Shown here one piece after another: positions 265-38,066 of a DNA stretch of 39,412 nucleotides. Origin of the DNA: a virus; the IMG/VR virus record IMGVR_UViG_3300038313_000213, positions 1 to 39,412 of that record; one strand, written 5' to 3'. The notes under the pieces were generated by a model. That model was not told where the DNA came from. It made no database searches and saw only the letters and a program-made list of their open reading frames with translations. The position numbers and the translations under genes are program-made. Every line of letters starts with the position of its first letter. Within the stretch, counting starts at the first letter, position 1.

Positions 265-930
265 TTACCAAAACTTTACATTCAAATTCTCAAACATTGC
301 TCTTTCCTGCTTTGCGTCCATCCTTGCGTATGTCTTCAATGTAATTGCAGTCGAACTGTGTGCTAAGTGGTAAGCGATTAATTCCGCGGGTACTCCCTGG
401 CTCTGCAAGTGCATGGCAATTCCGTGTCTGAACATGTGGGGATGGATGTGCCTCGTTCCTGCAAGCTCTGTAAGCCCGTTGAGAAGTTTATTGATTGCCT
501 GCCTTGTAATTGCCTTATTCGATCCACGCAATGAAGGAAAGAGCAACCCTTTAATTTCCCATGTCTGCACATAGTCCATTATCATAGTTAACGTGTCCAT
601 GTCAATTCCAATGGTGTGCCAGAATTCTCCGCCCGTTTTAACTTTCTTGCTTTTTCTCTTGTGGACCAGAAAGGTTACTGTCTTTTCTCTGTAATTTATT
701 TTTGTGGTGTTTATCTCCGTGACGTCTGATACCCGTGCACCAGTCGCCCACATAAGCTGTAGGAAAAGTTTATTTTTGTCTCTGATCCATTTATAGTTCT
801 CCGTCTGCTTGCTTCGTTCGTACGCAATGTCACACGCCCGTTTAAGCGTTTCTACTTCGTGAAGTTCTATATGGTCAACCTGCTCTTTTAAGAGTAAGTC
901 GCCTCCTCCGAATGGTACAAGTGAGTTCAT
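265..930 (-). CDS. Tyrosine recombinase/integrase (short, mostly catalytic domain)
   Basis: ATGAR(VSD) Arg, HPHMFRH (HxxR), LAH and KTYA Tyr: full catalytic set in 221 aa. Confidence 0.92.
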   Translation of the reverse strand: MNSLVPFGGGDLLLKEQVDHIELHEVETLKRACDIAYERSKQTENYKWIRDKNKLFLQLMWATGARVSDVTEINTTKINYREKTVTFLVHKRKSKKVKTGGEFWHTIGIDMDTLTMIMDYVQTWEIKGLLFPSLRGSNKAITRQAINKLLNGLTELAGTRHIHPHMFRHGIAMHLQSQGVPAELIAYHLAHSSTAITLKTYARMDAKQERAMFENLNVKFW

Positions 931-1104
931 TTCATCCTCTTTTGTGTATTACCACTCAATGTAAAAATCATCCCATGTTTTTATTCGTCTTGCTTCAGAT
1001 TCCATCCATGATGTTTCTTCGTCTTTTCGATAGTTTTTCCTCTCTTTCTCTGGTACGTACTTCATAATGAAACATCCTCCAAAAATTAATTTTAGAAAGT
1101 TTGC

Positions 1105-1368
1105 TTACGCCTTCTTATTTTGCTTTTTGTGTTCAGCCATTAACTTTTTAACGTATGCTGCGTCGGTTTTAAATTTGTCTGCCCATACAGTGTATTTTGT
1201 AGACGCATTGAACGCTGGTTTAGGTGCTTTTCTGGCGTCGTTCATCCTGTAAATGAGTGTTTTGTATAACCCTTCCCCTATCCCTGCATCGACCATCTTT
1301 TTTATAGCTTCCTGTCTCGTTTCTTTTGAATCATCCACACTGTATCCAAAGTCGCTGAGTTTTGCCAT
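1105..1368 (-). CDS. Hypothetical basic protein
   Basis: 87-aa ORF, GGTGA RBS, upstream TATA-like TTAAATA near 1420. Confidence 0.7.
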   Translation of the reverse strand: MAKLSDFGYSVDDSKETRQEAIKKMVDAGIGEGLYKTLIYRMNDARKAPKPAFNASTKYTVWADKFKTDAAYVKKLMAEHKKQNKKA

Positions 1369-1661
1369 GTTGTATCACCAAGAATCTTTCAGTTACAAGT
1401 ATATTGTTCTGTCAACTATTTAAGACTTTCGTTAAATTTTCTGCCCTAAAACTATCAATATCCAGGCAAAAATCAGTAAAAACGAAAAATCGAGTTTACA
1501 AAATTACTAGTTATGTAAACTAACCGGTTATACAAAAAAGTCGGACATTTCGAGTAAATTTTCTGGAATATGTTAAAAAGGGAAAGTTTGAAATTGCCAA
1601 GTATACGGGGAAGCGGTCAAAAAGAAAAAAAGAAATGAGCGAGGTCAAAACGTTGACGCAA

Positions 1662-1850
1662 TCACTTTCGTATATAAACGGTGTGTGCCCACCCGAAACT
1701 CCCGCCTTTTACAACACGCGCGTTGATTCCCTTTGCTCTCATCCTCTTTGCATATGCTTCCGCGTCTGCCTTTCTCGGGAGTTCGGTTTCCCACGTGTAT
1801 GTTACACCATTGAACTTTTTAAATTTTGGTAAAAATTTTCCAGTTGCCAT
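1662..1850 (-). CDS. Small basic protein, paralogue of 2293..2493
   Basis: GGAGTGA RBS; shares P.FK...G..Y, K.DA, RVV and VY with 2293..2493. Confidence 0.75.
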   Translation of the reverse strand: MATGKFLPKFKKFNGVTYTWETELPRKADAEAYAKRMRAKGINARVVKGGSFGWAHTVYIRK

Positions 1851-1927
1851 CTAATCACTCCATGTTGTCTTTTTACTGATACATCGTTATATAATAATTA
1901 GCTCTCAACATATAAAAAATATTGCTT

Positions 1928-2224
1928 TCAATTCTTCGGGTTATACAGCCTGCAACTTTTCAACCCATTTGTGTAATGTGGCCTTGTCTTGCTCGGGTAA
2001 ATTGCATGGACACAAACGTACTTTCCAAGCCTCTCTTTTCCTGCAGGAACATTTGCACTATACCGGCAAGTCGCGCATAGTTCATCATTTGCGTGAATCA
2101 AAACCGTCATAAATGTTTTGCAATGGCTACACGATGTGATTTCCTTGTTCTTTCTGAGGCACTTACACACGTTCGGTTCATTTGTGCGGATTAAGTGCTT
2201 ACAGTCTCCGTAGAAGGTTAGCAT
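1928..2224 (-). CDS. Cys-rich, probably Zn-binding protein
   Basis: Several CxxC/CxH motifs; start uncertain. Confidence 0.55.
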   Translation of the reverse strand: MLTFYGDCKHLIRTNEPNVCKCLRKNKEITSCSHCKTFMTVLIHANDELCATCRYSANVPAGKERLGKYVCVHAIYPSKTRPHYTNGLKSCRLYNPKN

Positions 2225-2292
2225 TAAAAAGAGAATGTGTTAATTATATTTAAATCATTTGTTAAAAAGAGAAAAATAAAAAAATAAGTTGG

Positions 2293-2493
2293 TTATCTCG
2301 AATCGTGTTTGTATACCGCGTATTTCCCTTTTTTAACTTCCACGACTCTTATAGACACGTCGTATCCCTTGTAATGATTTCTATACAGTCCGGCTTCGAC
2401 ATTTGCATCCGGTTTAGATTGCAAATGTCTTGAAACCGAACGATATTTTTTTCCAGATATTGTTTTAAAATCCGGTACATCTGAACCACATAT
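2293..2493 (-). CDS. Small basic protein (ATA start or frameshifted), paralogue of 1662..1850; not in the ORF track
   Basis: Open frame ICGSDVPDFKTISGKKY...KPDANVEA...RVVEVKKGKYAVYKHDSR*; GGGGGA RBS 7 nt before ATA; in-frame TAA just upstream. Confidence 0.6.
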   Translation of the reverse strand: MCGSDVPDFKTISGKKYRSVSRHLQSKPDANVEAGLYRNHYKGYDVSIRVVEVKKGKYAVYKHDSR

Positions 2494-2639
2494 GAGTTAA
2501 TCCCCCTAAAATAATTATTTTGTATAGTTATTAGTTTCAATGTTTATAAGTGTTACTGTTTTTCAATAAGCAAAGTTTTAAATACATTGTTGACTATCTT
2601 AAAATAATTAATTTACTAAGTAATGGGGGAAATAAACAA

Positions 2640-2888
2640 ATGACAGACGAACTGAAACTTGCACTTTTCCAGAAAGCGCTTGAAACGATTGACGCTGAAA
2701 TTGAAAAGACAGAATGTGAACTTGCAAGTGGTGTATATAATAAGTTATACGGACTAACCGAACGGCTATTAAACCAGCTTGAAATGTATGACAAAGCGAG
2801 AGAACGGATAGTTAACCGCGTGTGTAGACTCGAAAACGAACCAGCCACGTCCACGAACTTCGGACAGTGGAGGAATCCGAATGATTGA
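2640..2888 (+). CDS. Coiled-coil hypothetical protein, paralogue of 3049..3324
   Basis: ATG after GGGGGAAATAAACAA leader; shares LF..AL, E..LA, NKL and Y..AR with the next ORF. Confidence 0.75.
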   Translation: MTDELKLALFQKALETIDAEIEKTECELASGVYNKLYGLTERLLNQLEMYDKARERIVNRVCRLENEPATSTNFGQWRNPND

Positions 2889-3048
2889 CTTCATTCTTTC
2901 CTTTTTCGAGGCAATTTCAAAGGCAATCGTTGATATTGCCATGATCACTGCGAAATGTGTTAGATTACAATGATCTTTCTAAGTTAATTTTTTATAGGAT
3001 GTTGTACATATTATAACTACTCACTATATACAGGGGGAATAACAAACA

Positions 3049-3324: not shown

Positions 3325-5597
3325 TCGACGTGACCGGCACCGAAGGCGTAAGTTCTTCTATGGCAATTACAGAGGCTTTACCCGCAGTTAGAAACACCGA
3401 CGGATTCAAGACAGAGTGGAACAGAACAAAGATCATAAACATGATCGTGAAAGAAACGAAACTATGTGAGATATTCTATAGCAAACCTGCCGCGACATAC
3501 GAAGAAGCGGAGGCAATTGCAAGAGAAACCGAAAACATAGTCCTGAAAATGCGGAGAGATTTTCTTTCAGGCCCGCTTATCCGTGAAATTGTCAACACTG
3601 TACTTATTGAACGCGGTCATCCAGAATGGAGAAATTGCATGACCAGAGTAGGCGTTTCAGTCCATGACGCGTTCCAGATTGATTCAGGATATGGATTTGA
3701 GGCGAAGGACAACGCGAACCAGCTTGATAACGCGGAGACAAGCCACAAGAGGAAGGCAGACAAGCTAAGTAAAGAGCAGAACCTTTTACTTATACCAAAT
3801 GAAGTTTCAGAATTACATCTCAGTGGAGAGCTCCACATTCACGATTTAGAGTACTTCGGTACAAGGCCATTTTGCCAAGACTGGGACTTAAGGTATTTCC
3901 TCTATTACGGCCTTATGCCAGACGGAGTAGGGAAACAGTCAAGCATAGCAGGACCAGCAAAGAAAGCCGAAGTAGCTTTTCTTCACGCAGTAAAAGCAAT
4001 GGGAAGCGCACAGACTAACTTTGCAGGTGGACAGGGATTCTATAACTTCCTTACGTTCATGGCTCCTTACCTTGTGGGAAAGACAGAAGAAGAGATTGAA
4101 CAGCTTATGCAGATGTTTGTTTATGAAATGATGCAAATGATGTGTGCAAGAGGGGGCCAGACCGTTTTCAGTTCTGTACAGCTTTCGCCAGGAGTCCCTA
4201 AGTTGTGGAGAGACAAACCAATTGTAGCAAAGGGGCATATTTACGACGGTGACAATTACCACGTAGAATGTACTTACGGGAAGCTCGAAAGGGAAGTGAG
4301 GCTGGCATTCAAAGCTTTAATGACAGTCATGCTTAAAGGGGACCACGAAGGAAAGCCTTTCTTTTTCCCGAAACCCGAAATAAGCATAGAACCTGATTTC
4401 ATGCAGGAAGATGAACTATTCAATGCAATGAATCCAGATGTGCCGACTTACAGAGAGCTGTACAGAATGGCGTTTGCGCTTGCTGCAAAGTTTGGAACAC
4501 CTTACTTTGATAATCAACTCCCTGCTTATCGTGGCGCGGGGGATGGGATTTCATGCTATCAGTGCTGCGCGTATCAGTTTTCGGCAAATCCAACCGATGA
4601 CATGGAATTTGACGATAAGTTATATTTCAGAAACGGAAAGCATTTCTCTATGGGGTCTTGGATGGTAATGAGTTTAAACTGTCCGAGGGCTGCATACAAA
4701 GCAGAGCATGACGACAAGAAACTCTTTGAAGAATTAAAATCTCTGATGTGTAGCGCAATCGTGGTATTCCGAACGAAGCGCGAATGGATGGAAAGGCTTA
4801 TAGCTGCAAATAGAATTCCTTTCGCAAGTCAACGACCCAAAGACCCGAATACCGGAAAGCTGGGAGAAACGGCGGTTGATTTCGATGCGCTGGTATATAC
4901 TATCGGGATTATCGGAATAAATGAAATGGTACAGTATCATACCGGATACCAGATACACGAATCCGACGACGCTTACAAGCTTGCGATCAGGGCAATGCTT
5001 GAAATGAAAATGTACGCCAAGGAATTGTCGCACAAATATAACATGGAAATTGCACTTGCCCGAACACCTGCAGAAACGACGGCTCAGAGGTTTGCAGTAT
5101 CTGACTTAATGCATGATGAGTATAGAGAGAAGGCAATGCAAGTGATAAAAGGAGATGTTGACAAAGCACTTGAACACATAAGCGAAACAAAAGACCTACC
5201 GGTTTACTACACGAACGGAACGCACTTAGCACCCGGAGCGAGTGTGACAATTACAGAGAGAATCCAGAAAGAACAAATATTTTTCCCGATTGTAGATGGT
5301 GGAAATATAATGCATATCTGGATGAATGAAAAAGTACCGGATGTAGATGGATTAATGGATTTCGGTATGAGAATTGCAAAGAATACGCAGGTTGGGTACT
5401 TTGCATTTACGAGAGATATGACAATGTGTCTCGACGAGGGGTACATGTCGAACGGGCTGCAGGAAAAATGTCCTAAGTGTGGATCTGGAAACGTTCAGCA
5501 CCTTTCAAGAATTACGGGATACCTGCAGAATGTAGAAGGCTGGAACGAAGGAAAAAAGCAGGAATTGAAAGATAGAGCGAGGTATGACGTGGCATGA
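3321..5597 (+). CDS. nrdD: Anaerobic (class III) ribonucleoside-triphosphate reductase with N-terminal ATP cone
   Basis: ATP cone (WNRTKI...GPLIREIV), HIHDL, FCQD, YQCCAY, RTPAE, C-terminal C..C/CPKCG Zn site and SRITGYL glycyl-radical motif; start moved to ATG 3321 (ATGA overlap). Confidence 0.97.
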   Translation: MIDVTGTEGVSSSMAITEALPAVRNTDGFKTEWNRTKIINMIVKETKLCEIFYSKPAATYEEAEAIARETENIVLKMRRDFLSGPLIREIVNTVLIERGHPEWRNCMTRVGVSVHDAFQIDSGYGFEAKDNANQLDNAETSHKRKADKLSKEQNLLLIPNEVSELHLSGELHIHDLEYFGTRPFCQDWDLRYFLYYGLMPDGVGKQSSIAGPAKKAEVAFLHAVKAMGSAQTNFAGGQGFYNFLTFMAPYLVGKTEEEIEQLMQMFVYEMMQMMCARGGQTVFSSVQLSPGVPKLWRDKPIVAKGHIYDGDNYHVECTYGKLEREVRLAFKALMTVMLKGDHEGKPFFFPKPEISIEPDFMQEDELFNAMNPDVPTYRELYRMAFALAAKFGTPYFDNQLPAYRGAGDGISCYQCCAYQFSANPTDDMEFDDKLYFRNGKHFSMGSWMVMSLNCPRAAYKAEHDDKKLFEELKSLMCSAIVVFRTKREWMERLIAANRIPFASQRPKDPNTGKLGETAVDFDALVYTIGIIGINEMVQYHTGYQIHESDDAYKLAIRAMLEMKMYAKELSHKYNMEIALARTPAETTAQRFAVSDLMHDEYREKAMQVIKGDVDKALEHISETKDLPVYYTNGTHLAPGASVTITERIQKEQIFFPIVDGGNIMHIWMNEKVPDVDGLMDFGMRIAKNTQVGYFAFTRDMTMCLDEGYMSNGLQEKCPKCGSGNVQHLSRITGYLQNVEGWNEGKKQELKDRARYDVA

Positions 5598-5749: not shown

Positions 5750-6478
5750 ATGCTAATTAATTTTGGTGGGAGTGTTGCAATTTCAACCGTGGATTATCCC
5801 GGGAAATCTGCAATAGTTCTTTTTTTGCGTGGCTGCCCTCTCCGGTGTCCATACTGCCATAACCATAAGTTGTGGAGTGGCAATAACTATGTTGAAATTG
5901 ACCACGTAAAAAATCTTATCCGCGAATCCATGCCCTTCATAAGTGCCGTGGTAATTTCTGGCGGTGAGCCTCTGATGCAAGAGAGAATCTTTGAAATTGC
6001 CAGCTTCGCTAAGTCTGAAGGTCTTTCGGTAGGAATTGAAACGAGCGGGTATTATCCCGAAGTTGCAGAAAGATTGATAAAAAAGAACATGGTTGATAAA
6101 TTCTTTGTAGATGTCAAGGCAAATCCTGAGAAATATGAGGAAATCACGAAAAATAAGTATGCTTTTTCAAGACTCGAAAGATTTTTAAAAATCGTCAAAA
6201 ATAACAACGTTCAATTTGAGCTTAGAACAACGATTGTTAAAGGGTTGATAGGAACACTGCCTGAATGTGATAAAATCGCTCGGTGGGCTTCTATGTGGCT
6301 TACAGTGGATAATACATGGACAATTCAACAAGGTATACCCGAAAACGGCAATTTTGAGCATTTCGACGGAATTCGTATGTATTCAAGGGAAGAAATACTT
6401 GAAATTGCCATGGGAATTAAGCGAATCGTCAAAAATGTAAAAATCAAGACAGTTGAACGAGGGGAAGAAACGTGTTAA
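5750..6478 (+). CDS. nrdG: Anaerobic RNR activating enzyme (radical SAM)
   Basis: STVDYPG, GCPLRCPYCHN (CxxxCxxC), SGGEP, ETSG; downstream of nrdD. Confidence 0.95.
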   Translation: MLINFGGSVAISTVDYPGKSAIVLFLRGCPLRCPYCHNHKLWSGNNYVEIDHVKNLIRESMPFISAVVISGGEPLMQERIFEIASFAKSEGLSVGIETSGYYPEVAERLIKKNMVDKFFVDVKANPEKYEEITKNKYAFSRLERFLKIVKNNNVQFELRTTIVKGLIGTLPECDKIARWASMWLTVDNTWTIQQGIPENGNFEHFDGIRMYSREEILEIAMGIKRIVKNVKIKTVERGEETC

Positions 6479-8363: not shown

Positions 8364-8376
8364 GGAGTGGGTGGAG

Positions 8377-9497: not shown

Positions 9498-9763
9498 ACT
9501 AATGTACGGACTTGTAAAATTCGGATTCTGCTTTGTAATTGTCACTGAACTTTCACTTCTTTTTTACTGTGCAATTGCATGAAGGTGTGTAACATGGACT
9601 TCATTAAAGCTTGGTTTGTGTCAGTAATAACATTTGGAATTGCAATAACAAGTACATTGGCAGTGATACCATGAAAGAACAGATAATTGCCTTTATTACA
9701 TTTCTAATTTTTGCAATGGTAAACAGTTGTTAAAAAAAAGAAGTTTTCGGGACAATTCCCGAT

Positions 9764-12337
9764 TCATCTTGTTTTTGATTTCCGTTTTGTAGTTCGTTTT
9801 CTAGGTGCTTTTCTTTTTGTAGTTGTTTTTCTCTTCTGTGAGACAGTTTCGCCAAAGAAACTATCCATGTTTCCGAGAACGTTGTGTATAGTGCGTTTCA
9901 TTCTATACATGTCGCGTTCGTTTTCAAGTGTTTCTTCGTTCTTCTTTTTCTTCGATGTTTTTATAATCGGGTTCCGTTCGTTTACCCGGATGATCGGTTC
10001 ATTTCCTCCTGCTTTTGATTCTTTCGGATTCACAACGCGCGTACTTCTTCCTATCGTTGGTTTACTCACATTCGGCTTGCTCGTTGTTTCCATGCTCTTG
10101 CTATTCGTTCCTTTACTGGTTGTGCTCTTACTGGTTGTGCTCTTACTGGTTGTGCTCTTACTTGATGCGCTCTTACTTGATGTGCTCTTGCTCGGTGATG
10201 CCCTGCTCGCGCTCTTACTGCCATAAGACGGCTTGCTGAACGTCCCTTTACTTCCACCTTCAGCAATCTTACTACTTTCCATTTTACTTACTTCATTAAC
10301 AATCAATTCCTTCGATGCACTTGGCACGTAAGCCGTCTTAGACCGCTCAGAAATGCCCCTCGAGATTGCCTTAGACACATTAACCTTATCTGACGAGAAT
10401 ATCAGTTCAAGGTCTTTTGCGGTGCTTGCTCCACGAACCACAGTATTCATTTTCGCAGAATCAATACTACCCGTCATTTTTACGATTTCAGCTTTTCCTG
10501 GCAACTTGCCATTTTCCACTATATATTTAACTATAGGAGATTCCAGTATTGAAGGGTTCTTTTGAGCTCCGATTTTAGCATATGCAATTATATCGTCTGC
10601 AATTCCAAGTTTACCGGTCACTTCATACGCCGTGCCTATTTCTATCAAGTCCCTAACGTCCTTTACACGGCCACCGTGCATGAGCTCAATCTTTCCGTCT
10701 TTAAGTGTTGTGCCACCTGCAAACTTCCTGGCGGCCTGCTCCTGCAGCTTCATCATTTTTACTTTACCGGCTTTTATGGATTTTTTGCCTTTGAACCCGT
10801 AAGCAATACCAGATTCCGACCTATAACCAACACCAACTTCGTTTTCAATTGAAACTTTCGATTGCTTGTTTTTCGAGAAAACCTCAACTCCCTTTTCCCA
10901 TACACCATTCATTTTAAATTCGATTTTCGGCGCGCTTGCTTCTCCGGTTATCTGATAATCAATGCCTTCTTTGTATCCTGCCTTATTCGCGTTCTTCCTG
11001 AAATTCGAAACGAATTTATTTGTATTGCTTACAGACAATTCAATGTCTTTCGGGGATCTGGTAAAGAATCCTTTCATTTGCAATTTTTGGGGTACGGATC
11101 CATAAACCTGTATATCCCCTGTTTTCAGCAACCCACTATAACCGGTTATTGTGTCCTTTACAACACCTTTCATATTTTGTGGTATATGCTCGCTCAGGAT
11201 ATCAAGCGATTTCGGCTTTGTAATTGCCTTACGCTGTTTATACGCGGTTTCAGCAATTGTTTTTCCAGACTTAAAATATGTCTGTTCTGTCGGGTTCATT
11301 TGCTTCATTGTCTCTTCAAATGCCCGTGTGTCAGATTTCCGGAATGCCTGTACCTGCTTGCCTTCGATTGCTTCTTTAGACGCTCCAACTGCACCACGTT
11401 TTATTTTACCGGTTTCCTTCGAATATGATATCAAAGGTCTTTCTTTTACATTCAAAGAATACCCCAGTTTAATGTCCCGTACTGCAGCCGCTTCTCCCGG
11501 TGTAACCTCTTGCAATTTCACGGACTTAACTTTAACCGGTGATGATTTAACCCCAGCTTTCGCAACACGTCCAAGCCCCTCCATTGCAACTAGACTTGTT
11601 ACAAACCGCACTGGATCAGTTTCAAATGACTGAACGACCATACCAGCACCTACCGGTATAGACGGCGCAATTATTCGCGGAGACTGTGCGTACCTTTCCG
11701 CTCCATATGCAATGTGTCCGGCAGCGTTCCCGATGTCCGTAACATCGTACAGCCCCTTCACAACTGACCCGACGACTGGTATATTTTCCGTCGCTTGAGT
11801 TGCTTCAACTGCATATGTTTTCTTTTTCAACCACGTTGAAAGGTCTTTTCCGGAATGATTAATTTCTTTAGCAATGTTCGAGTGCTTGAACTCCTTGGTA
11901 GTGCTAAATCTTTCAACTGCTTCCTTTTGTTTATTTGTAAGTTCTCTTCCTGCAGCAATTGACTTTCCAGCACCGTATAGGTTTTTAGCGTAAGAAGCAA
12001 GGCTTTGTTTATTGTTTTTGGTATTGCCAAAATTCTTTACCTGACTTATAATGCTCCGTGGTTGTCCCACGCTTGCACCCGTAGCAGCAATAGTTACGTT
12101 GCCTGCAGAATCACGCGAAAAGAAATTAGTAGTCTGTCTTTTCGCTTCTTCAATCTTCCTGCTTTGCTCTACTGCAGCAGCGCGTTTCGCTTCCTGCTCC
12201 CTTGCGTATCTGGACCCTGTAGATCCACCTACTATATCTCCTCTTGCGTCCCTGGAAGCTGTGTGTTTCGCGGCGTATCCACTAGCGGCATCAGATACAC
12301 TTACGTGAGTTTTCCCGCTACCATCGACATACGCCAT
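9764..12337 (-). CDS. 857-aa basic protein with a central AbiEii/MenT-like nucleotidyltransferase domain and S/T/K-rich tail; last gene of the structural operon
   Basis: VYGS...RSPKDIE, KGVEVF, EQAARKF and RVKDVRDL motifs; K/R-rich C terminus; coupled to 12342..12584. CDS is certain, domain call is inference. Confidence 0.7.
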   Translation of the reverse strand: MAYVDGSGKTHVSVSDAASGYAAKHTASRDARGDIVGGSTGSRYAREQEAKRAAAVEQSRKIEEAKRQTTNFFSRDSAGNVTIAATGASVGQPRSIISQVKNFGNTKNNKQSLASYAKNLYGAGKSIAAGRELTNKQKEAVERFSTTKEFKHSNIAKEINHSGKDLSTWLKKKTYAVEATQATENIPVVGSVVKGLYDVTDIGNAAGHIAYGAERYAQSPRIIAPSIPVGAGMVVQSFETDPVRFVTSLVAMEGLGRVAKAGVKSSPVKVKSVKLQEVTPGEAAAVRDIKLGYSLNVKERPLISYSKETGKIKRGAVGASKEAIEGKQVQAFRKSDTRAFEETMKQMNPTEQTYFKSGKTIAETAYKQRKAITKPKSLDILSEHIPQNMKGVVKDTITGYSGLLKTGDIQVYGSVPQKLQMKGFFTRSPKDIELSVSNTNKFVSNFRKNANKAGYKEGIDYQITGEASAPKIEFKMNGVWEKGVEVFSKNKQSKVSIENEVGVGYRSESGIAYGFKGKKSIKAGKVKMMKLQEQAARKFAGGTTLKDGKIELMHGGRVKDVRDLIEIGTAYEVTGKLGIADDIIAYAKIGAQKNPSILESPIVKYIVENGKLPGKAEIVKMTGSIDSAKMNTVVRGASTAKDLELIFSSDKVNVSKAISRGISERSKTAYVPSASKELIVNEVSKMESSKIAEGGSKGTFSKPSYGSKSASRASPSKSTSSKSASSKSTTSKSTTSKSTTSKGTNSKSMETTSKPNVSKPTIGRSTRVVNPKESKAGGNEPIIRVNERNPIIKTSKKKKNEETLENERDMYRMKRTIHNVLGNMDSFFGETVSQKRKTTTKRKAPRKRTTKRKSKTR
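10113..10187. repeat. Five tandem 15-bp repeats encoding KS(T/A)(T/S)S pentapeptides
   Basis: TTACTGGTTGTGCTC x3, TTACTTGATGCGCTC, TTACTTGATGTGCTC. Confidence 0.9.
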
Positions 12338-25002: not shown

Positions 25003-25076
25003 CCGTCTTTTCTCCTATTGCAATTTCAAAGCCGTTCGTTTTAATCTCTGTGATTGCCACACTCATCCCCCCTATA

Positions 25077-26638: not shown

Positions 26639-26877
26639 GTTTTATTCCTCCTTAAAAACTGGAATTGGTATACTCGCGTCTGGCATTCCACGCGGTAGAT
26701 TGTGCATCATTCGATTGAAAAACATTTGATCGACGTTCAGTGCAAACATTGGTTCTCCTGCCCTCGTGTCTCCGTCCTCCATGGCATCAACGAACGACGC
26801 CATTTGTTCAGGTGTCTTGAAAAAAAATTGTTATGTTAGGGCAATTACAAAGCTTATTGTATCTCTCGTTTGCCATG

Positions 26878-27984: not shown

Positions 27985-28364
27985 GCGCAGAAGACATGAC
28001 AGAAAATACAAACGAAATGACAAATGAAGAACTCGACGAGGAAGAAATCGAGGAAGGAATATCAGATCTTGAAGCATTCCTCGAAGGAGAAGACAACGAC
28101 GAAGACGATGAAGAATACGAAGATGAAGAAGAGGACGATGTGCCAATTTCAAAGGTAATCACTGAGATTGCACAGCCTATTAAAATCACAACCAGTGTGG
28201 GCGCAGAGATTGACAGTAAGGGACAGTTAAAACCAAACTGCAAGTTCACAATTGAAAGAAATATTACACAGGACGACGACGAATTTGAAATCATGGAAAA
28301 CGATTTCGATGCACCGATTGAAAAGGTGAAGATGACAATTGCAGAGCTTAAGGGGGGAAACTAA
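27981..28364 (+). CDS. Highly acidic protein
   Basis: E/D-dominated N-terminal half. Confidence 0.75.
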   Translation: MSAEDMTENTNEMTNEELDEEEIEEGISDLEAFLEGEDNDEDDEEYEDEEEDDVPISKVITEIAQPIKITTSVGAEIDSKGQLKPNCKFTIERNITQDDDEFEIMENDFDAPIEKVKMTIAELKGGN

Positions 28365-29114
28365 ATGGCAAAGATCAGACTTGAACCAGGTAAGAGGTTC
28401 AGAAGAGACGAATCATTCACAGAGCAGGTAGTCGATTACTACCTTGAAGAGAACGATTTTACCGAGGACGTTGGACTGGTAATTGCAACAACCGAAGAGC
28501 CTGTCCTTAAGATTCCTCTCAAGTATAAGGATTGGGTAGATTACGACGGTGAAAAATCTCCGAAATTCGGAAGCAATGCTTACAGATTCTTCGAATCCCT
28601 GATGAATGCAGGAGTGATGATAGATCTTGATGTTGAAACAATGGATGTTAAGTTTGATCCGGATCTTCGCGGGCAGACTGTAAGCTTCGACGTTGAACAT
28701 AAATCATTCGCAAGCAAGACAGATACAGAACTGGTAAACGTGAACGGGCAGCTTGTAAAGCAGCCGAGGATAATTTCTTTCGATGTCTGGACGGTTGCAA
28801 GTGTGGGCGGATCGAAGGCGACAATTACAGAGGTTAAGGCACCAGCTCCGAAGGTCGAAGAAGTACCAATTAATGAGGATGATATCAAAGCCGGATATAT
28901 CGAGGCATTAACACCGTTTGGTTATGAGCCTTTCACTCTGCCAAACACCATCAAAGTGACAAACGACTATGCTAAATCAATTGGGTCAGAGAGCATTAAA
29001 GCACAATACACGGTAATGAAGAACAAGACAAAATATCTTGAAGCTCTTGTGCTGGACGGGGTTCTCGAAAAGAGTCCGGACGGAAAGTACAAATTTGTTG
29101 ACGGGGTTCTCTAA
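28365..29114 (+). CDS. Hypothetical protein, possibly an ssDNA-binding partner of the Sak4-like ATPase
   Basis: 249 aa, beta-rich; function inferred from position only. Confidence 0.6.
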   Translation: MAKIRLEPGKRFRRDESFTEQVVDYYLEENDFTEDVGLVIATTEEPVLKIPLKYKDWVDYDGEKSPKFGSNAYRFFESLMNAGVMIDLDVETMDVKFDPDLRGQTVSFDVEHKSFASKTDTELVNVNGQLVKQPRIISFDVWTVASVGGSKATITEVKAPAPKVEEVPINEDDIKAGYIEALTPFGYEPFTLPNTIKVTNDYAKSIGSESIKAQYTVMKNKTKYLEALVLDGVLEKSPDGKYKFVDGVL

Positions 29115-29147: not shown

Positions 29148-29918
29148 ATGAAGCTTACAAATTCTATTTCTATATCAGGAACAACCGGCACAGGTAAAAC
29201 ATACGGGGTCTGCAAGTTGGTCAATGATCTTGGACTTAAAGCCATGGTGCTTGATTTCGAAAACAAGACCGAAAAAACCGTAAAACTTCTTTTTCCCGAA
29301 GCTGCGGACAGATTTGAAATTGCAAACGTAATGCTCAGAAAGGAAGAACCGAAGACCGACGTAACAAAAGTAGGAAAGATAACTTCAAGAGATATGAGAA
29401 TTGTACTTAAGAACGCTCCGGATTATCTCAAGAGCTTCCTTAACCTGAAAGACAACTTGATAAATAATATTCTTGAGCGAAGTGATTTCGACGTTTTGGT
29501 GTATGACGGTGCAACCCCGATACTTCGCAACCAAATGGGCTTAGAGTATTGGAGAATGTTGCACCCTGATAGAGATAACCCAATGCCGGAAGAATGGGGA
29601 GCAATGAACGACATTGAACGCGCTTTCATTGAAGGTGGGATTGGCTGGGCAGAGGAAAACAACGGGCTCTTTATCGTAACTGGTCAGATGAAAGACCTTT
29701 ACCGTGGAGATAAGATAATCGGTGAAGTTCCGGCAATTTCAACGAAAGTACAGCATACAATTGATGTGACTCTGCAGGTAGAAAAGAAGATCGGGATTAA
29801 GACAGATTACGTTTGCACCTGCCTTGACTCGATAAAAGGGCAGTGGATTGAAAATCTCACATTTGACAGACATATAATTGATGTGCTAATTGAAAAGGAG
29901 CTGATTGGTTATGATTAA
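29148..29918 (+). CDS. P-loop ATPase, AAA_24/Sak4-like recombination protein
   Basis: ISGTTGTGKT, VLDFEN, VLVYDG, ..VTGQ.. RecA-like layout. Confidence 0.7.
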   Translation: MKLTNSISISGTTGTGKTYGVCKLVNDLGLKAMVLDFENKTEKTVKLLFPEAADRFEIANVMLRKEEPKTDVTKVGKITSRDMRIVLKNAPDYLKSFLNLKDNLINNILERSDFDVLVYDGATPILRNQMGLEYWRMLHPDRDNPMPEEWGAMNDIERAFIEGGIGWAEENNGLFIVTGQMKDLYRGDKIIGEVPAISTKVQHTIDVTLQVEKKIGIKTDYVCTCLDSIKGQWIENLTFDRHIIDVLIEKELIGYD

Positions 29919-30258: not shown

Positions 30259-30897
30259 ATGTCTCACCGTGTTTTTTCAGCGTCTGAAAACAGAATCGTA
30301 GCTAAAAGCATAACAGACGCAAGAGAAAAAATTGTAAGAGTGATTTGGAACAACGGGGCAAGACTAATTGACCAGAGGGGAGAAGCAACAAGGGAAATAA
30401 TCGGGCTTGAAGTAATTGTCATGAATGGCAATCTCGAAGCTGGACAGACCATAATGCTGCAGGCAGAAGACTTTGCAACTGGATTACTGAACGATTACAT
30501 TGCAATGAAAAAAGGAGAAGAATTCGATTACGCATACGGTGAGAGGTTAAGGAGAGCAAAACAACTTGATAGAGTAATTGAGCTCTTAAAGACCGATCCG
30601 AGTACAAGACGGGGATATCTGCCAATCTTCCAACCGTGCGACAATTTCAGCGATGTTGAAAAGCCATGTTGGGCTTCTCTTCAGTTCATAATTCGGAATG
30701 GGAGACTGGACATGATTGATTATTTCCGGTCAAATGAATGTTGTATAGCAATCCCGTCAGACATGTACGGAGCTTACAAACTGCTCGAATATGTGGCTGA
30801 AAAAGTAGGAGTAATGCCCGGGTGGATTTATCATTATATTGCTTGTGCTCATCTGAGAGAATCAGATTATGATACAATAAAAACTTTATTGGGGTGA
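30259..30897 (+). CDS. Archaeal-type thymidylate synthase homologue with Asp at the substrate-specificity position (possible dCMP methylase/hydroxymethylase)
   Basis: FDYAYGERL, DPSTRR, KPC (Cys137), FRSNE (Arg157), IPSD (Asp168), AHL; spacing matches E. coli C146/R166/N177. Confidence 0.85.
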   Translation: MSHRVFSASENRIVAKSITDAREKIVRVIWNNGARLIDQRGEATREIIGLEVIVMNGNLEAGQTIMLQAEDFATGLLNDYIAMKKGEEFDYAYGERLRRAKQLDRVIELLKTDPSTRRGYLPIFQPCDNFSDVEKPCWASLQFIIRNGRLDMIDYFRSNECCIAIPSDMYGAYKLLEYVAEKVGVMPGWIYHYIACAHLRESDYDTIKTLLG

Positions 30898-31972: not shown

Positions 31973-31973
31973 C

Positions 31974-34398: not shown

Positions 34399-35809
34399 TC
34401 AGAAAGACATAAGAGAACACTATAAACGTCCTGAAATTGTCGAGGCAATTACAAGGATTTCAGCTGATGGTAATTTCAGCAGGGCCGGAATGAAATTTAC
34501 TCCTTGTGCTTATGTAGACAGGGAAACAGGAGAGCTCAAAGATTCAATGGACTGGTATAATCTCAGACCTGGCAACAGAAGAACGAAGAAAAAAATTGAT
34601 ATGTCAAAGACCAAAGATTACATTAATGCGGTGACCGAGTGCAGGACTTTGTATTGGACATTGAATGTCTTTGGAAAGGAAATATACGATGTCGATTATA
34701 GACAAGTTGACAAAGCAGAAGGGCCGATGTTAAGCAGGGTCCACACAGTCGGGTACACTCTTGGAATTGACATAGACAAAGAGCATGGTTGCGATATTCA
34801 TTCTCCTGCAGTAAAAGAAGCCGTGGAAGATATGGCACAATACTTTACAAACATTCTTCGTGAACACTTACCGAATTCCGTTTACGTTCTGTATTCAGGC
34901 GGTGGGATATATGTAATGTTGCACCATAAAGCATTTGAAAAGTATTTCGACAGGTTCAGAGATTCAGAAGAATGGGATATGATGTTACTTACCTTCTTAG
35001 ATGCCTTTGATTGTCTCATAGGAGACATGCGAGAGTCTTTCTTTAAGGAGTTTCCACAACATAAAGGTAAAGTTAAGCCTGACCAACTGAACGGCTCTCA
35101 GAGAGTCTTTAAGACGCTTTACAGTGTGCATAAGAGTTTAGATTATGCGGTAGTTCCTTTGGATGTGGACAATATCAAGGTAGACTTTAATGCGGCTACA
35201 ATTCCATTGTCAAGCTCTGTAATTGCTATGGGAAATGAGTGGTATTCAAAATGGGACGATGGGACAGAATTTCTTAACAAAGTGTTTAAGCCTTATCTCG
35301 AAAATTCATACAAAAATAGAAGATCTGCAATAAGCAGAATGGATGGAAGAGAAGTTGAGATATCCGAAACTCCGATCGGTTATGAAAATTGGGCTCCTTG
35401 CATGAAAAACTTGTTTGAGTTGGAAGATTGCGGAGAAGGGGCAACCCGTGCACTAGCTGTATTCTGTTCATACTTAGGGCAAATGGGGATAGAAGAGGAA
35501 GAAGCTTATCAGTGGTTTAACCTGCTTGCGGATAGATGGAACGCAAGAAAAAGTAATTTATTCGAAAGTTATTATAGAAGTATGAAGGTTCCGACATGCG
35601 AACGTTTGAACGCCATTGACAACGTGGGATTCCCGAAAGGCGTTTCTTTGCGGAGTCTTTGCGTTTGTGAACCGGATGACAGATGTCTTAAAGTGCCGTC
35701 TCCGTTGTATTATTCCGATGCAGTTGCAGAGAAAAAACGACAGGAAAGTAAAGCAGAAAGGAAAATTGACTATAAACCAGTAATCAACATTCGAAAGAAA
35801 AATAATTGA
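34382..35809 (+). CDS. Archaeo-eukaryotic primase, PriS catalytic domain fused to a PriL-like Fe-S domain
   Basis: GIDID, YSGGGI, QRVFK..YS.H; C-terminal APCM...PTC...C.C...C Cys set; alternative GTG start at 34391. Confidence 0.8.
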   Translation: MGNVLNQKDIREHYKRPEIVEAITRISADGNFSRAGMKFTPCAYVDRETGELKDSMDWYNLRPGNRRTKKKIDMSKTKDYINAVTECRTLYWTLNVFGKEIYDVDYRQVDKAEGPMLSRVHTVGYTLGIDIDKEHGCDIHSPAVKEAVEDMAQYFTNILREHLPNSVYVLYSGGGIYVMLHHKAFEKYFDRFRDSEEWDMMLLTFLDAFDCLIGDMRESFFKEFPQHKGKVKPDQLNGSQRVFKTLYSVHKSLDYAVVPLDVDNIKVDFNAATIPLSSSVIAMGNEWYSKWDDGTEFLNKVFKPYLENSYKNRRSAISRMDGREVEISETPIGYENWAPCMKNLFELEDCGEGATRALAVFCSYLGQMGIEEEEAYQWFNLLADRWNARKSNLFESYYRSMKVPTCERLNAIDNVGFPKGVSLRSLCVCEPDDRCLKVPSPLYYSDAVAEKKRQESKAERKIDYKPVINIRKKNN

Positions 35810-36175: not shown

Positions 36176-36484
36176 ATGAACTTGACAATTACAGAGAGCA
36201 GAGAGCAACAAACAACAACGCGGCAAATAAATCTTGTATGTAAAAGCCTTGCTAAATTCCTGCACGTAAAGGATAGCAGATATGGAAGTTCTATATCTGA
36301 TCCTATACACGTTTTCGCAAAAGGGACAGCAGACGACTTGCTTTATGCAAGGATTGACGATAAAATAAACAGAATACGAAACAGTGAAGAACTAAGAAAA
36401 AATGATGTAGTCGATTTAATGGGTTACTTAGTGTGGGTTTGTATTAAAAAAGGTTGGTTAAGTTTCAGGGATTTGATAGATTGA
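36176..36484 (+). CDS. Nucleotide-modification-associated domain 1 (Nmad1/DUF1599-like) protein
   Basis: K...YGSS...P...F...RIDDK..R...DLMGY. Confidence 0.7.
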   Translation: MNLTITESREQQTTTRQINLVCKSLAKFLHVKDSRYGSSISDPIHVFAKGTADDLLYARIDDKINRIRNSEELRKNDVVDLMGYLVWVCIKKGWLSFRDLID

Positions 36485-36807: not shown

Positions 36808-36978
36808 ATGGACACACTGAAAGCCGCTTTAGAAATGATTTCGATTATGAACTCTGGAATTTCGAATGCATTACACGTGAGTAAATACCCGAACGACCAC
36901 AACAACGAAAGACTGAAGGCACACATTATCGGGATTGTTGATAGACTGAACGCGCTGCTTGAAGAAATGGAGGAATAA
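36808..36978 (+). CDS. Microprotein (56 aa)
   Basis: MDTLKAALEMIS...LLEEMEE*; leads into the 36981 ORF; not in the track. Confidence 0.55.
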   Translation: MDTLKAALEMISIMNSGISNALHVSKYPNDHNNERLKAHIIGIVDRLNALLEEMEE

Positions 36979-36980
36979 AC

Positions 36981-37169
36981 ATGTGCGAAGTAACTGTTTA
37001 CAAAGATGGAATGAAACATACCATTTTAAAAGACAAGAAAATAATCGAGAAAATTGCATGTGGTAGGACAGTTCCATGTGTGGAATACTTACACAGACTG
37101 TTTCCGGCAAAGATTACAGACTTGGAATTGCCAGACTTCGTAGAAACAGAGGTTGCAATATTCATTTGA
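36981..37169 (+). CDS. Hypothetical microprotein
   Basis: GGAGG RBS. Confidence 0.6.
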   Translation: MCEVTVYKDGMKHTILKDKKIIEKIACGRTVPCVEYLHRLFPAKITDLELPDFVETEVAIFI

Positions 37170-37179
37170 GGTGGTTGGC

Positions 37180-37374
37180 ATGGTAGAAACTGAAATTGTC
37201 AATGTAATTGCAAGGGCAAACAAGGAATTCGTTTACAACTTGGTTGAAGGTAGGGCAATATCAAAGGAAGACGTTAAAGAAACAATTGCCGAAATGCTGG
37301 AAACCTGCAGTAAAGAAGAATGTGATTACATCATGCAGAGAATTTCTGCTTGGCTAACGTATGCTAAAAGGTGA
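37180..37374 (+). CDS. Hypothetical microprotein
   Basis: GAGGTG RBS before ATG 37180. Confidence 0.6.
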   Translation: MVETEIVNVIARANKEFVYNLVEGRAISKEDVKETIAEMLETCSKEECDYIMQRISAWLTYAKR

Positions 37375-37380
37375 ATTGAA

Positions 37381-37695
37381 ATGCCTTTCAAACAATCCGA
37401 AACAAGACCACAACAGGGCAGAGGGCAAAAAACAAAAACGAAATGCCCTTGCTGTGGAACTTACATTCAGTCCGTATACATGAAAATTGACGGGAAGCTT
37501 GTAAGCGTGGGGGAAGAGTGCCCGAACTGCATTGAAGAGAAAATGAAGAACGAGTTTAACAAGGATGAATTAGAAGTGATCTGTGACGCTGTGACAACGA
37601 TTGGTATACAAACATCAAAACCAAAAGACTACAGCTTCTTGAAGATTATAGAGAGCATTTACGCGAAGTCTGAGAATAAGTTAAAGTACAAATAA
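37381..37695 (+). CDS. Zinc-ribbon protein
   Basis: CPCCG...CPNC; AGGTGA RBS. Confidence 0.7.
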   Translation: MPFKQSETRPQQGRGQKTKTKCPCCGTYIQSVYMKIDGKLVSVGEECPNCIEEKMKNEFNKDELEVICDAVTTIGIQTSKPKDYSFLKIIESIYAKSENKLKYK

Positions 37696-37729
37696 CTTTT
37701 TTTAAAAAACGGTTTTAAGGGGAATCCCC

Positions 37730-37915
37730 TTACATATATTCAATTGAATCCGTTGGATGATAACAAAATGACTTCTTTTCTCCGTCCAGCTTTATCTTAA
37801 GGTAAGCTCCGGTAGCTCCGGTTATCCGGCCTTCTTTTCCTTTGTACTTTACCCGTCCTCCGACTTTAGCGGGAACGTTGTAATATTTCCTTATGTAATC
37901 TATGCTGTTATACAT
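37730..37915 (-). CDS. Small SH3/KOW-like virus protein
   Basis: YIRKYYNVPAKVGGRV...G.ITGA.GAYL.I.LDG...HPT resembles a family I recall from phages; GGAG RBS. Confidence 0.65.
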   Translation of the reverse strand: MYNSIDYIRKYYNVPAKVGGRVKYKGKEGRITGATGAYLKIKLDGEKKSFCYHPTDSIEYM

Positions 37916-38066
37916 GTTTCAACTCCGTTGTTTTTCTAAAGGCAATTACAGCGTTGCTTATGTGTTTAACCACTCTTACGACGACTTCAATTAATCGGGT
38001 ATAGATAAACCAATTAATAACATTCCCATAGTAGTGTATGAAGTCATAAGACATTTCATGTAGTGT

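Follow-up and report, generated by a model that had tools for sequence, protein, structure and literature searches.

The window analysed here is the whole stretch of 39,412 nucleotides, the complete genome of a virus of methane-producing archaea (Methanosarcina virus). The virus encodes an integrase, a UvrD-like helicase and a 475-aa protein whose nearest language-model neighbours are archaeal primase families (PriX, DNA_primase_S), which is taken as a lead only. Also present is a nucleotide-modification-type gene block, with a thymidylate-synthase-like enzyme, MazG, a weak dNMP-kinase match and an HNH endonuclease; a methyltransferase domain was not found in this genome. Dispersed over the genome is a short word, the copies of which are listed in the table together with the genes of four candidate DNA-binding proteins.

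The dispersed word and its copies

In its strict 12-bp form, the word occurs 29 times in 39.4 kb, whereas dinucleotide shuffles lead one to expect 0.25 copies and never exceed 3. The 24 copies listed in the original prediction are all exact in position and strand, including the six occurrences of GCAATTACAGAG, the most repeated 12-mer. That count was nevertheless too low, as five more copies fit the pattern (15070-, 22259-, 24985-, 29733+ and 30641+), and the 12-mer, although its excess is real, was drawn too narrowly. The full word has 13 bp, K-R-CAATT-N-CA-R-N-G (for example, the duplex form GGCAATTACAGAG), with an unconstrained central base, and the 12-mer is its strict form. The flank preferences of the 13-bp word are seen when sense, antisense and intergenic copies are each taken alone, and match those found in the independent genomes L041 and L063. 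The core of the word, CAATTNCA, is present 83 times, about 5-fold over an order-3 Markov expectation; its single-mismatch variants stay at about 1-fold, without depletion of the one-mismatch neighbours.

About three quarters of the strict copies are intragenic, those in sense orientation sharing, with one exception, the frame A/T-I-T/S around an Ile codon, and several are intergenic, as first noted. The copies are randomly spaced along the genome. No excess was detected near gene starts, and neither this genome nor its 61-kb relative, both complete, displays strand or replication polarity of the word; with a proposed origin near 25.1 kb, the polarity test gives 22 of 29 copies here and 15 of 25 in the relative, figures that are confounded with gene direction. 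Taken together, random spacing and the lack of polarity and of gene-start excess fit a need for a certain density of sites and not for particular positions. The longest gap without the motif is formed by an island of low GC content with an IS200 tnpA in it, and the strict form is absent from the IS and tnpB units of this genome, as had been remarked for their genes.

Table. Copies of the word and genes of candidate readers. Rows with a 12-bp sequence are strict copies; "kept" refers to the equivalent site in the genomes named.
Feature	Position	Strand	Context and state in relatives
GCAATTACAAGG	502..513	-	integrase gene, sense A-I-T-R; motif kept in 61-kb relative
GCAATTTCAAAG	2911..2922	+	intergenic; kept in 61-kb relative
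GCAATTACAGAG	3363..3374	+	nrdD codons 2-5 (M-A-I-T-E); motif-compatible GCAATTACAAAG in 61-kb relative
ACAATTACAGAG	5247..5258	+	nrdD, sense T-I-T-E; absent in 61-kb relative
GCAATTTCAAAG	5989..6000	-	nrdG, antisense
ACAATTACAAAG	9531..9542	-	at the start of small ORF 9351-9545, where two gene blocks converge; lost in 61-kb relative but kept in L041 and L042
GCAATTACAAAG	11216..11227	-	gene of 857-aa basic protein, sense A-I-T-K
GCAATTACAAAG	12471..12482	-	gene of 80-aa basic protein (P0051), sense; motif kept in 4/4 genomes
GCAATTACAGCG	12520..12531	+	P0051 gene, antisense; inverted partner of 12471; kept in L041 and L042
GCAATTACAAAG	14283..14294	+	intergenic; kept in L041
ACAATTACAGCG	14809..14820	-	799-aa gene, sense; motif kept in 61-kb relative and L041
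ACAATTTCAGGG	15070..15081	-	799-aa gene, sense; one-base variants in relatives
GCAATTACAGAG	18232..18243	-	168-aa gene, sense A-I-T-E; identical in 7/7 genomes, flanks differing
GCAATTACAGAG	21985..21996	+	ORF 21789-22043, antisense; motif kept in 61-kb relative
GCAATTTCAGCG	22259..22270	-	ORF 22040-22390, sense
GCAATTACAGAG	23061..23072	+	intergenic
GCAATTACAAGG	23458..23469	-	UvrD-like helicase gene, sense; synonymous ATT to ATC in 61-kb relative
ACAATTACAAAG	24985..24996	-	UvrD-like helicase codons 3-6; kept in 61-kb relative
GCAATTTCAAAG	25020..25031	+	upstream of UvrD-like helicase; inverted partner of 24985
GCAATTACAGAG	26274..26285	+	ORF 26123-26506, antisense
ACAATTACAGAG	26321..26332	-	ORF 26123-26506, sense; inverted partner of 26274
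GCAATTACAAAG	26841..26852	+	intergenic
ACAATTACAGAG	28821..28832	+	249-aa gene, sense
GCAATTTCAACG	29733..29744	+	256-aa gene, sense
ACAATTTCAGCG	30641..30652	+	thymidylate-synthase-like gene; sole sense copy in another frame
GCAATTACAAGG	34445..34456	+	475-aa gene, sense; kept in 61-kb relative
GCAATTACAGAG	35215..35226	-	475-aa gene, antisense
ACAATTACAGAG	36185..36196	+	ORF 36176-36484, codons 4-7
GCAATTACAGCG	37942..37953	+	intergenic
13-bp copy, central C (K-R-CAATT-C-CA-R-N-G)	13431..13443	-	
13-bp copy, central C	16805..16817	-	
13-bp copy, central C	20826..20838	-	
13-bp copy, central G	22698..22710	+	
13-bp copy, central G	23902..23914	-	within palindrome TGCAATTGCA
13-bp copy, central T; last variable position T	25825..25837	+	
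13-bp copy, central C	27225..27237	+	
13-bp copy, central G	28334..28346	+	
857-aa protein	9764-12337		very basic tail
P0051, 80 aa	12342-12584		ferredoxin-like, pI 10.8
AbrB-like paralogue	16718-16897		
AbrB-like paralogue	20739-20900		

Selection on duplex DNA and restriction to one virus lineage

Selection for the word operates on the DNA itself, whichever way a copy faces. This is seen from shuffles of the coding bodies (300 of each kind), which enclose 22 of the 29 strict copies and leave 7 outside, with strict copies counted over the whole genome. Synonymous-codon shuffles retain a mean of 8.4 copies (maximum 13) and codon-order shuffles 7.2 (maximum 9), and even dicodon shuffles, the check suggested at the outset, give only 11.3 (maximum 16). 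Since the excess survives all three, it is not a codon effect, in agreement with the original prediction that codon use would be insufficient. In the two main frames, 63 positions are synonymously accessible in sense and 71 in antisense; the core occupies 28 and 31 of them, respectively, where about 4 and 5 are expected. Overall occupancy is 44% against an expected 6-7%; relatives reach 24-30%, sister viruses 14% and a stretch of host DNA 9%. The equal occupancy in both orientations points to duplex DNA, rather than RNA, as the form that is read. Across the genome, 39 cores are in sense and 44 in antisense orientation, with a weak lean toward the sense strand for the strict copies (19:10) and for the 13-bp form (24:11, p = 0.04).

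The 13-base word is genome-wide and lineage-specific in this group of related viruses. The core reaches 1.3-3.3 copies per kb in this virus, its 61-kb relative, L039, L041, L042, L043, L044, L063 and L064, so that, beside this virus, the motif-bearing set has at least seven members among related metagenomic genomes or fragments. Background density (0.3-0.6 per kb) is found in a sister virus (36.5 kb examined), L038, L045-L050, L065, three Methanosarcinaceae proviruses and a M. mazei remnant, and no comparable dispersed word was found in the examined DNA of sister temperate viruses. Among hosts, five Methanosarcina and Methanolobus genomes contain 27-48 strict copies per 2.9-4.6 Mb, and 177 Methanosarcinaceae genomes contain 0-38 copies of the 13-mer each, which corresponds to a density some 60-100 times lower than in the motif-bearing viruses. 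A mild 2-4-fold excess over controls is observed in both host and sister genomes.

Within the motif-bearing lineage, the core density is 2.0-2.6 per kb in the shared backbone, 1.5-1.7 in accessory DNA and 0.49 in the IS607-type unit, which is 96.6% identical between this virus and the 61-kb relative. This is a residence-time effect: recently acquired IS DNA stays at background for the word, and acquired DNA gradually reaches motif density. Between the same two genomes, 45% of the core sites are kept, compared with 24% of other 8-mer windows (p = 3e-4) and 35% of non-motif windows containing AATT, the latter difference not being significant (p = 0.11). Sites 12471, 12520 and 14809 are kept in three to four genomes. 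Differences between genomes at word sites are point substitutions, often synonymous; the copies arose through such substitutions, and the comparison points to partial purifying selection on the sites, with modest per-site conservation and high turnover.

Known systems and rival explanations

Among known systems, the stoperators of Cluster A mycobacteriophages (L5 gp71, Bxb1) number 20-30 sites, most of which face one way with respect to transcription and most of which lie in noncoding DNA (PMC6550527). They share with the present case an asymmetric 13-bp word, dispersed in tens of copies over a temperate genome of 40-60 kb and with a consensus confined to a narrow lineage; stoperators are read by a virus-encoded protein, and such reading is presumed here. 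The word could, by analogy, be a genome-wide silencing site at which the repressor of a temperate virus blocks elongation over the prophage or episome in the manner of the L5 repressor, and both the integrase and the weak sense lean would be consistent with it. This explanation is nonetheless unlikely: unlike stoperators, the core is present in 83-107 copies, free in orientation and mostly in frame within genes, with no link to gene boundaries or gene starts, no known repressor and an archaeal host. Furthermore, about 2 cores per kb and 44% of the accessible codon positions lie far above what roadblocking needs, and the sister temperate viruses have no comparable word in the DNA examined.

The uptake sequences of Neisseria (DUS) and of Pasteurellaceae (USS) are short asymmetric words found about once per kb on both strands, placed in genes in the least costly frames and kept by selection or drive that acts on how many there are and not on where they lie; imported DNA acquires them slowly. 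All of these traits recur here, and the density, length and preferred-frame placement would speak for a host-directed signal common to virus and host, whether an uptake sequence, a Chi-like signal or a KOPS-like translocase guide. DUS and USS, however, are features of a competent cell's own chromosome, and the uptake machinery of that cell is the reader, whereas the present word is a property of a virus lineage, with only background numbers in the host family (all 5 and 177 genomes searched); IS elements from such hosts do not carry it, nor do sister viruses whose host genus is the same. The uptake tag put forward in the original prediction is excluded on these grounds, a host at background being what the prediction itself had named as refuting. 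Chi, KOPS and SRS are likewise over-represented words dispersed over a replicon and read by DNA-processing machines, but they have 5-8 nt and are strongly skewed with the direction of replication; the absence of polarity, which had already been noted and was confirmed in both complete genomes, excludes the Chi-like option that was proposed alongside, and a KOPS-like signal with it. A host-directed signal of any kind is thus highly improbable and largely refuted already.

HIP1 (GCGATCGC), reportedly treated together with other highly iterated palindromes of cyanobacteria by Elhai in 2015, provides another parallel. It is a palindrome spread chromosome-wide in cells, in the frame A-I-A, and resembles the present word as a hyper-abundant short word in a fixed frame around an Ile codon (A/T-I-T/S here), with conservation beyond expectation and a putative reader; unlike HIP1, the word here is asymmetric and restricted to viruses.

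Some primase-polymerases, such as pRN1 ORF904 and that of phage NrS-1, require a specific template sequence. The word may accordingly be imagined as the place where the replication proteins of the virus itself, namely the 475-aa primase-like protein, the UvrD-like helicase and an SSB-like protein, recognise the template or initiate, with synthesis by strand displacement starting at many points on one strand or the other. The primase neighbours of the 475-aa protein, its pairing with the UvrD-like helicase in the motif-bearing clade, where the sister virus has a D5-type primase-helicase, and a spacing of about 1 core per kb per strand, on the order of a priming interval, are in its favor. What a primase reads is single-stranded, and with a fixed origin one would therefore expect the strand polarity that is missing from both genomes; moreover, the 475-aa family (50-60% identity) also occurs in motif-free elements such as L065, which has a UvrD-like helicase as well, and known primase recognition sites have 3-8 nt rather than 13 bp. 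Taken together, this makes a replication site quite unlikely.

Hardly better placed is a target of a DNA-modifying or nicking enzyme (methyltransferase, base-hypermodification enzyme or HNH endonuclease), whose dense marks would be useful as protection or as a self-mark. Some type IIG and type III enzymes have specificities resembling asymmetric words of such length, the nucleotide-modification-type block is suggestive, and clade member L063 encodes an MT-A70 methyltransferase. That enzyme is, however, absent from this virus and reduced to a 94-aa remnant in the 61-kb relative, while the thymidylate-synthase-like and HNH genes are shared with the motif-free sister virus. Being a target gives in itself no reason for selecting more targets, and 80-100 nick sites over both strands would fragment the genome. 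Equally doubtful is a by-product of lineage-specific molecular drive, without reader-dependent function, arising from biased mismatch or short-patch repair or from biased gene conversion in frequent recombination of co-infecting genomes. The weak per-site conservation, the high turnover and the slow filling of acquired DNA would agree with drive, for which the mild excess in host and sister genomes is a possible seed. With known repair biases, very-short-patch repair among them, word frequencies shift by less than two-fold, too little for the 5- to 100-fold change seen here; a 13-bp specificity would still require a sequence-specific protein, the one-mismatch neighbours are not depleted, and some sites are kept in 4-7 genomes despite flank divergence.

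A putative reader in the virion gene block

It is probable that some lineage-specific protein reads the duplex word. More specifically, we infer from the pattern of sites that K-R-CAATT-N-CA-R-N-G would be the recognition site of a sequence-specific dsDNA-binding reader of the virus lineage, with selection acting on site number and density rather than on exact places, so that the entire viral chromosome is marked as viral. The likeliest use would be nucleating condensation and selective uptake of viral DNA into the spindle-shaped particle, a virion type for which we know of no terminase or pac system. A packaging role for the word in particular is a suggestion reached by reasoning, and to a reader site with this use, the reader being putative, we assign a probability of about 0.4. 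Among the options in the original prediction, binding sites of a genome-organising or packaging protein are the best supported, taking into account that the word acts at the duplex level, is orientation-free, randomly spread, selected for density and confined to one lineage.

In ssRNA viruses (MS2, STNV and others), dispersed RNA stem-loop packaging signals are bound by the coat protein, and the coat machinery thereby recognises and condenses its own genome. With many degenerate copies of one element running through coding sequence, these signals offer the functional analogy that we favor, although the element here is a linear duplex-DNA word and its binding is presumed.

The reader may be a basic protein from the virion gene block, candidates being P0051, the 857-aa protein and the two AbrB-like proteins. 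Among genes with a recognised domain for sequence-specific DNA binding, none was found to be peculiar to the motif-bearing clade. Motif-free proviruses have homologues of P0051 and of one of the AbrB-like proteins, at 38-43% identity, which indicates that particles of this kind are built by sister lineages that lack the word. The structural model of P0051 shows only a ferredoxin-like fold of a generic kind, and no known structure matches it significantly; the protein is 89-95% identical across the clade, and its gene contains a conserved inverted pair of word sites within its own coding sequence.

An asymmetric 13-bp word under constraint as duplex DNA

The original prediction listed 24 copies of a 12-bp motif dispersed on both strands; every one of them is exact, and five further copies match the pattern. 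The 29 strict copies in the window (0.74 per kb) compare with 0.25 expected. This strict pattern is the narrow tip of a broader word. The 8-bp core CAATTNCA occurs 83 times (2.1 per kb), about five times its order-3 Markov expectation, and each of its single-mismatch neighbours lies near expectation under the same model. Around the core, preferences for K and R at the two bases on the left and for R, N and G at the three bases on the right recur independently in sense, antisense and intergenic copies. Taken together, core and flank preferences define the unit as an asymmetric 13-bp word, K-R-CAATT-N-CA-R-N-G, present in its full form in 35 copies. Symmetry is confined to the central AATT and is shared by neither flank, G-R-C or N-C-A-R-N-G.

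Coding bodies contain 22 of the 29 strict copies. An artefact of codon or peptide usage is nevertheless ruled out by three coding-aware shuffles together with an occupancy analysis. The genome-wide maxima in 300 trials each, which include the seven strict copies from DNA left unshuffled, were 13 for synonymous-codon shuffles within genes, 16 for dicodon shuffles (third positions permuted with dinucleotides preserved) and 9 for codon-order shuffles, against 29 observed. The excess thus persists under dicodon shuffling, the check proposed with the original prediction. Of the genic cores, 88% are framed xxA-ATT at the central AATT, with ATT as a codon; this frame lock reflects opportunity, since those frames let common small-Ile-small tripeptides spell the word. 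The core is spelled at 28 of 63 synonymously accessible positions in the main sense frame (about 4 expected from codon usage) and at 31 of 71 in the main antisense frame (about 5 expected), with a similar several-fold excess in the rarer frames. The equal occupancy in both orientations indicates a constraint on duplex DNA rather than on mRNA or protein, and rules out a signal at the RNA level.

The cores are distributed 40 plus to 43 minus by strand and 39 sense to 44 antisense relative to genes (19:10 for strict copies, 24:11 for the 13-bp form), and their gaps match random placement. For any pair of breakpoints, scores for replication or strand polarity stay within shuffles in both complete genomes, the window and its 61-kb relative IMGVR_UViG_3300029825_000423. 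An apparent polarity around a proposed origin or iteron region near 25.1 kb (22 of 29 in the window, only 15 of 25 in the relative) was discounted, as it is confounded with gene direction and unreproduced in the relative. A promoter- or start-associated element was rejected as well: copies follow the starts of nrdD, the helicase gene and ORF 36176, and overall there is no excess near starts. The three inverted pairs found 35-49 bp apart do not significantly exceed the one or so expected.

The virus, its lineage and the turnover of sites

The main features of this complete virus record (39,412 bases) and of the related loci are collected in the table below. Assignment of the host is based on TnpB, which shares 91%, 84% and 81% identity with copies from a Methanosarcinales MAG and from two Methanosarcina genomes, and on ATPase homologues located in proviruses of Methanosarcina genomes. 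Judged from these relationships, the window is a temperate virus of a Methanosarcina-type methanogen, probably spindle-shaped. A family for such a virus has recently been established (PMC12451623). A provirus of the motif-bearing clade was not found in 177 Methanosarcinaceae genomes, nor was a tRNA or Rfam family found in the window, or a near-identical phage or plasmid record for it. The literature search found no paper detailing this virus group or genome, or describing the 13-bp word.

Features of the window and of related loci
Feature	Record	Position	Remark
Tyrosine integrase	window	265-930	
Anaerobic ribonucleotide reductase nrdD/nrdG and glutaredoxin	window		
Low-GC island	window	6868-9533	33.9% GC; longest core-free gap
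857-aa basic protein	window	9764-12337	end of virion block; pI 10
80-aa basic protein (P0051)	window	12342-12584	end of virion block
SpoVT/AbrB-like paralogue	window	16718-16897	morphogenetic block
SSV-type AAA+ ATPase	window	17064-17990	morphogenetic block
SpoVT/AbrB-like paralogue	window	20739-20900	morphogenetic block
Small coat-like protein, two helices	window	21093-21362	morphogenetic block
UvrD-like helicase	window	23389-25002	
249-aa protein	window	28365-29114	conserved in all motif-bearing genomes
256-aa protein	window	29148-29918	91% identical in 61-kb relative
Nucleotide-metabolism block: thymidylate-synthase-like, HNH, MazG	window		
Three IS-type units: IS200 tnpA; IS607-type recombinase and tnpB; solo tnpB	window		
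IS607-type unit (serine recombinase and tnpB)	window	31287-33242	
Same IS607-type unit	61-kb relative	58213-60168	different location
475-aa protein	window	34382-35809	
564-aa MT-A70 family methyltransferase	clade member L063	2987-4681	
PCNA_N-domain protein	clade member L063	7541-8248	at the position of the 256-aa protein
Short provirus remnant (L036)	M. mazei CP009509.1	2344857-2365765	within complete chromosome
Iteron array (L055/L056)	G013:C37	15285-15677	motif-free provirus
Iteron array (L057)	G069:C51	~83.1-83.5 kb	motif-free provirus
Iteron array (L059)	G053:C11	~225.1 kb	motif-free provirus

The 61-kb relative (61,329 bp) aligns collinearly to the window, with 70-90% of nucleotides identical, and carries 25 strict and 107 core copies, with 0 for the reversed-pattern control. 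Other contigs of the clade, whose ATPase is at least 79% identical (L039, L041-L044) or whose 475-aa protein is at least 80% identical (L063, L064), show 1.3-3.3 cores per kb with identical flank preferences, and no fewer than eight independent metagenomic assemblies contain the word. The more distant relatives comprise the sister virus contig (ATPase 73% identical; 36.5 kb examined), L038, L045-L050, L065, proviruses in three Methanosarcinaceae genomes and the M. mazei remnant; they show 0.3-0.6 cores per kb and at most one strict copy each, except for three in the provirus stretch of G069. Occupancy of accessible codon positions is 44% in the two main frames of this virus and, over all six frames, 24-30% in clade members, 14% in sister viruses and 9% in a host stretch. 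The view that every lineage has its own word was rejected, because the over-represented 8-mers of outgroup viruses belong to clustered iterons, to a tandem coding repeat or to an RBS-start cassette and are not dispersed tags.

Five host-type genomes contain 27-48 strict copies per 2.9-4.6 Mb, and the 13-mer occurs 0-38 times in each of 177 Methanosarcinaceae species genomes; on these counts the density in hosts is about 60-100 times below that in the virus, with a mild 2-4-fold excess of the word over the reversed control. The counts exclude a host uptake sequence and do not support the uptake-sequence-like tag offered by the original prediction as one shared with the host.

Between the window and the 61-kb relative, the strict motif is kept at 8 of 21 alignable strict sites, and divergence is 16% in motif columns versus 24% in flanks. 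Retention is 45% for core sites and 24% for the remaining 8-mer windows (p = 3e-4); for AATT windows outside the motif it is 35%, which the core sites do not exceed significantly (p = 0.11). The site at 18232 is identical in seven genomes with differing flanks, and the inverted pair 12471/12520 inside the 80-aa gene is kept in three or four. Changes at sites between genomes are point substitutions, often synonymous (ATT/ATC, ACA/ACT). Core density depends on the residence time of the DNA: it is 2.0-2.6 per kb in the shared backbone, 1.5-1.7 per kb in unshared accessory DNA and 0.49 per kb, equal to background, in the IS607-type unit, which is 96.6% identical in both viruses. Taken together, retention, point substitutions and residence-time density point to a chromosome-wide force in this lineage, one that favours many copies, tolerates turnover and slowly converts imported DNA.

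Several further observations concern the same comparison. The identity of the IS607-type unit at different locations indicates that it was recently mobile among these viruses. The low-GC island carries small ORFs and an IS200-type tnpA and is not shared with the 61-kb relative. The nrdD gene most likely starts at ATG 3360 (M-A-I-T-E) and not at the upstream TTG 3294 (window 3294-3374); nucleotide similarity with the relative begins at 3357, by this ATG.

Known systems and possible functions

Dispersed recognition words as such are already known from bacteria and phages. The stoperators of Cluster A mycobacteriophages are 13-bp asymmetric sites in tens of dispersed copies, predominantly in one orientation with respect to transcription and mostly in non-coding DNA or at gene boundaries, where they are bound by the cognate immunity repressor (PMC6550527). 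Among the viral systems described, such a repressor network comes closest, and the word resembles it in length, asymmetry and dispersed full and core copies. It lacks the two traits on which stoperator action depends, since its orientation is not uniform and most strict copies lie within coding bodies, and it shows no excess near gene starts. The DNA uptake sequences DUS and USS are similar in having about one copy per kb, on both strands and in preferred gene reading frames; they are, however, enriched in the chromosome of the DNA-taking cell, whereas the hosts of this word are at background.

Unlike Chi, KOPS and SRS, which are polar with respect to replication, the word has no polarity; Chi- or KOPS-type signals are therefore excluded, including the Chi-like signal of the original prediction. 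Highly iterated palindromes of the HIP1 type differ in that the word is not palindromic. Origin iterons and ORB elements cluster at the origin, whereas the present copies are dispersed and spaced as at random, which excludes them. A mobile mini-repeat of the MITE or REP-like kind is also excluded, because copies arise by substitution: their flanks are unrelated beyond 13 bp, and orthologous sites differ by substitution rather than insertion. To our knowledge, euryarchaeal ORB boxes, crRNA 5' tags and IHF or Fis sites bear no convincing likeness to the word. The dispersed word is thus a genuine and strong signal, and nothing described for archaeal viruses accounts for it.

These exclusions leave a putative duplex-DNA reader with sequence specificity, one that would bring more benefit as site density rises. 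The favoured role is that this reader would mark the viral chromosome so that it is condensed and selectively encapsidated, as suggested by the basic proteins ending the virion block, by the conservation of P0051 and by the fact that we know of no terminase or pac site in this particle type. In its wider form, a virus-encoded reader of a word present about twice per kb would distinguish viral from host DNA, either for condensation and loading into the terminase-less, spindle-shaped particle or for protection; this proposal is tentative, with a probability of roughly 0.3. The reader candidates themselves temper the favoured role, as P0051 and one of the AbrB-like proteins also have homologues in motif-free proviruses. 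Genome-wide silencing through the word is one alternative, for which the stoperators would be the model despite the differences in orientation and placement. Another is that the word would serve as an initiation site for the primase-like 475-aa protein, whose nearest language-model neighbours are archaeal primase families (PriX, DNA_primase_S) and not a nucleotide-modification domain. The word may alternatively be a target of modification, or the product of a reader-dependent molecular drive without further function.

If marking of viral DNA by its own reader is correct, the word would be to double-stranded DNA what dispersed packaging signals are to RNA viruses, and to viruses what uptake sequences are to bacteria. 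We know of no mechanism for DNA selection and condensation in spindle-shaped or other terminase-less archaeal viruses. A word filling almost half of its silent opportunities offers a strong and testable handle on a protein-DNA recognition system, and the 13-bp duplex (as in GGCAATTACAGAG) can serve as bait to fish out the reader protein. The word can also be used as a signature by which metagenomic contigs of this virus lineage are recognised, and its density as a clock for dating DNA acquired within it.

Candidate readers and related elements

Within the clade no protein is better conserved than P0051 (89-95% identity); its model is confident, but the ferredoxin-like fold that it shows is generic and has no significant structural match. 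The 857-aa protein has a Ser/Thr/Lys low-complexity stretch at about residues 700-760 and a very basic, histone-tail-like C-terminus, and is possibly an internal or DNA-condensing virion protein. Both small SpoVT/AbrB-like paralogues are conserved across the clade; the ORF at 16718-16897 probably starts at an internal codon, since the relative has stops upstream. For the 249-aa protein, a low-confidence model gives a beta-rich N-terminal domain and a C-terminal winged helix, and the structural matches, which are only weak, are SSB, PrgE, RPA and winged-helix proteins; this protein may be the viral single-strand-binding protein. ORFs 27081-27344, 31095-31334, 36176-36484 and 37381-37695 and the integrase also count among the candidates. 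Contrasting gene content for a clade-specific reader leaves a long list, as the sister virus differs by whole modules.

Members of the 475-aa family occur widely among Methanosarcina viruses and elements, and no homologue has a recorded Pfam domain. The 256-aa protein has only a weak dNMP-kinase match. The MT-A70 methyltransferase of L063 is not found in the window, and in the 61-kb relative it is reduced to a remnant of 94 aa. Clustered iteron arrays occur in related motif-free proviruses (CTGTTACCA in 11 copies; ATTTCTCACGT; a 28-bp tandem repeat in 6 copies), which are probably origins and look different from the dispersed word. The replication and accessory genes of the sister virus contig JBINOF010002556.1 (L061/L062) are of another kind, with a D5-type primase-helicase, an SNF2 helicase and a PAPS-reductase/ParB-like pair; the contig also contains about 10 copies of an RBS-start cassette, AGGTGATTAAATG. 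The M. mazei remnant consists of an integrase, three small ORFs and an ATPase homologue with 58% identity.
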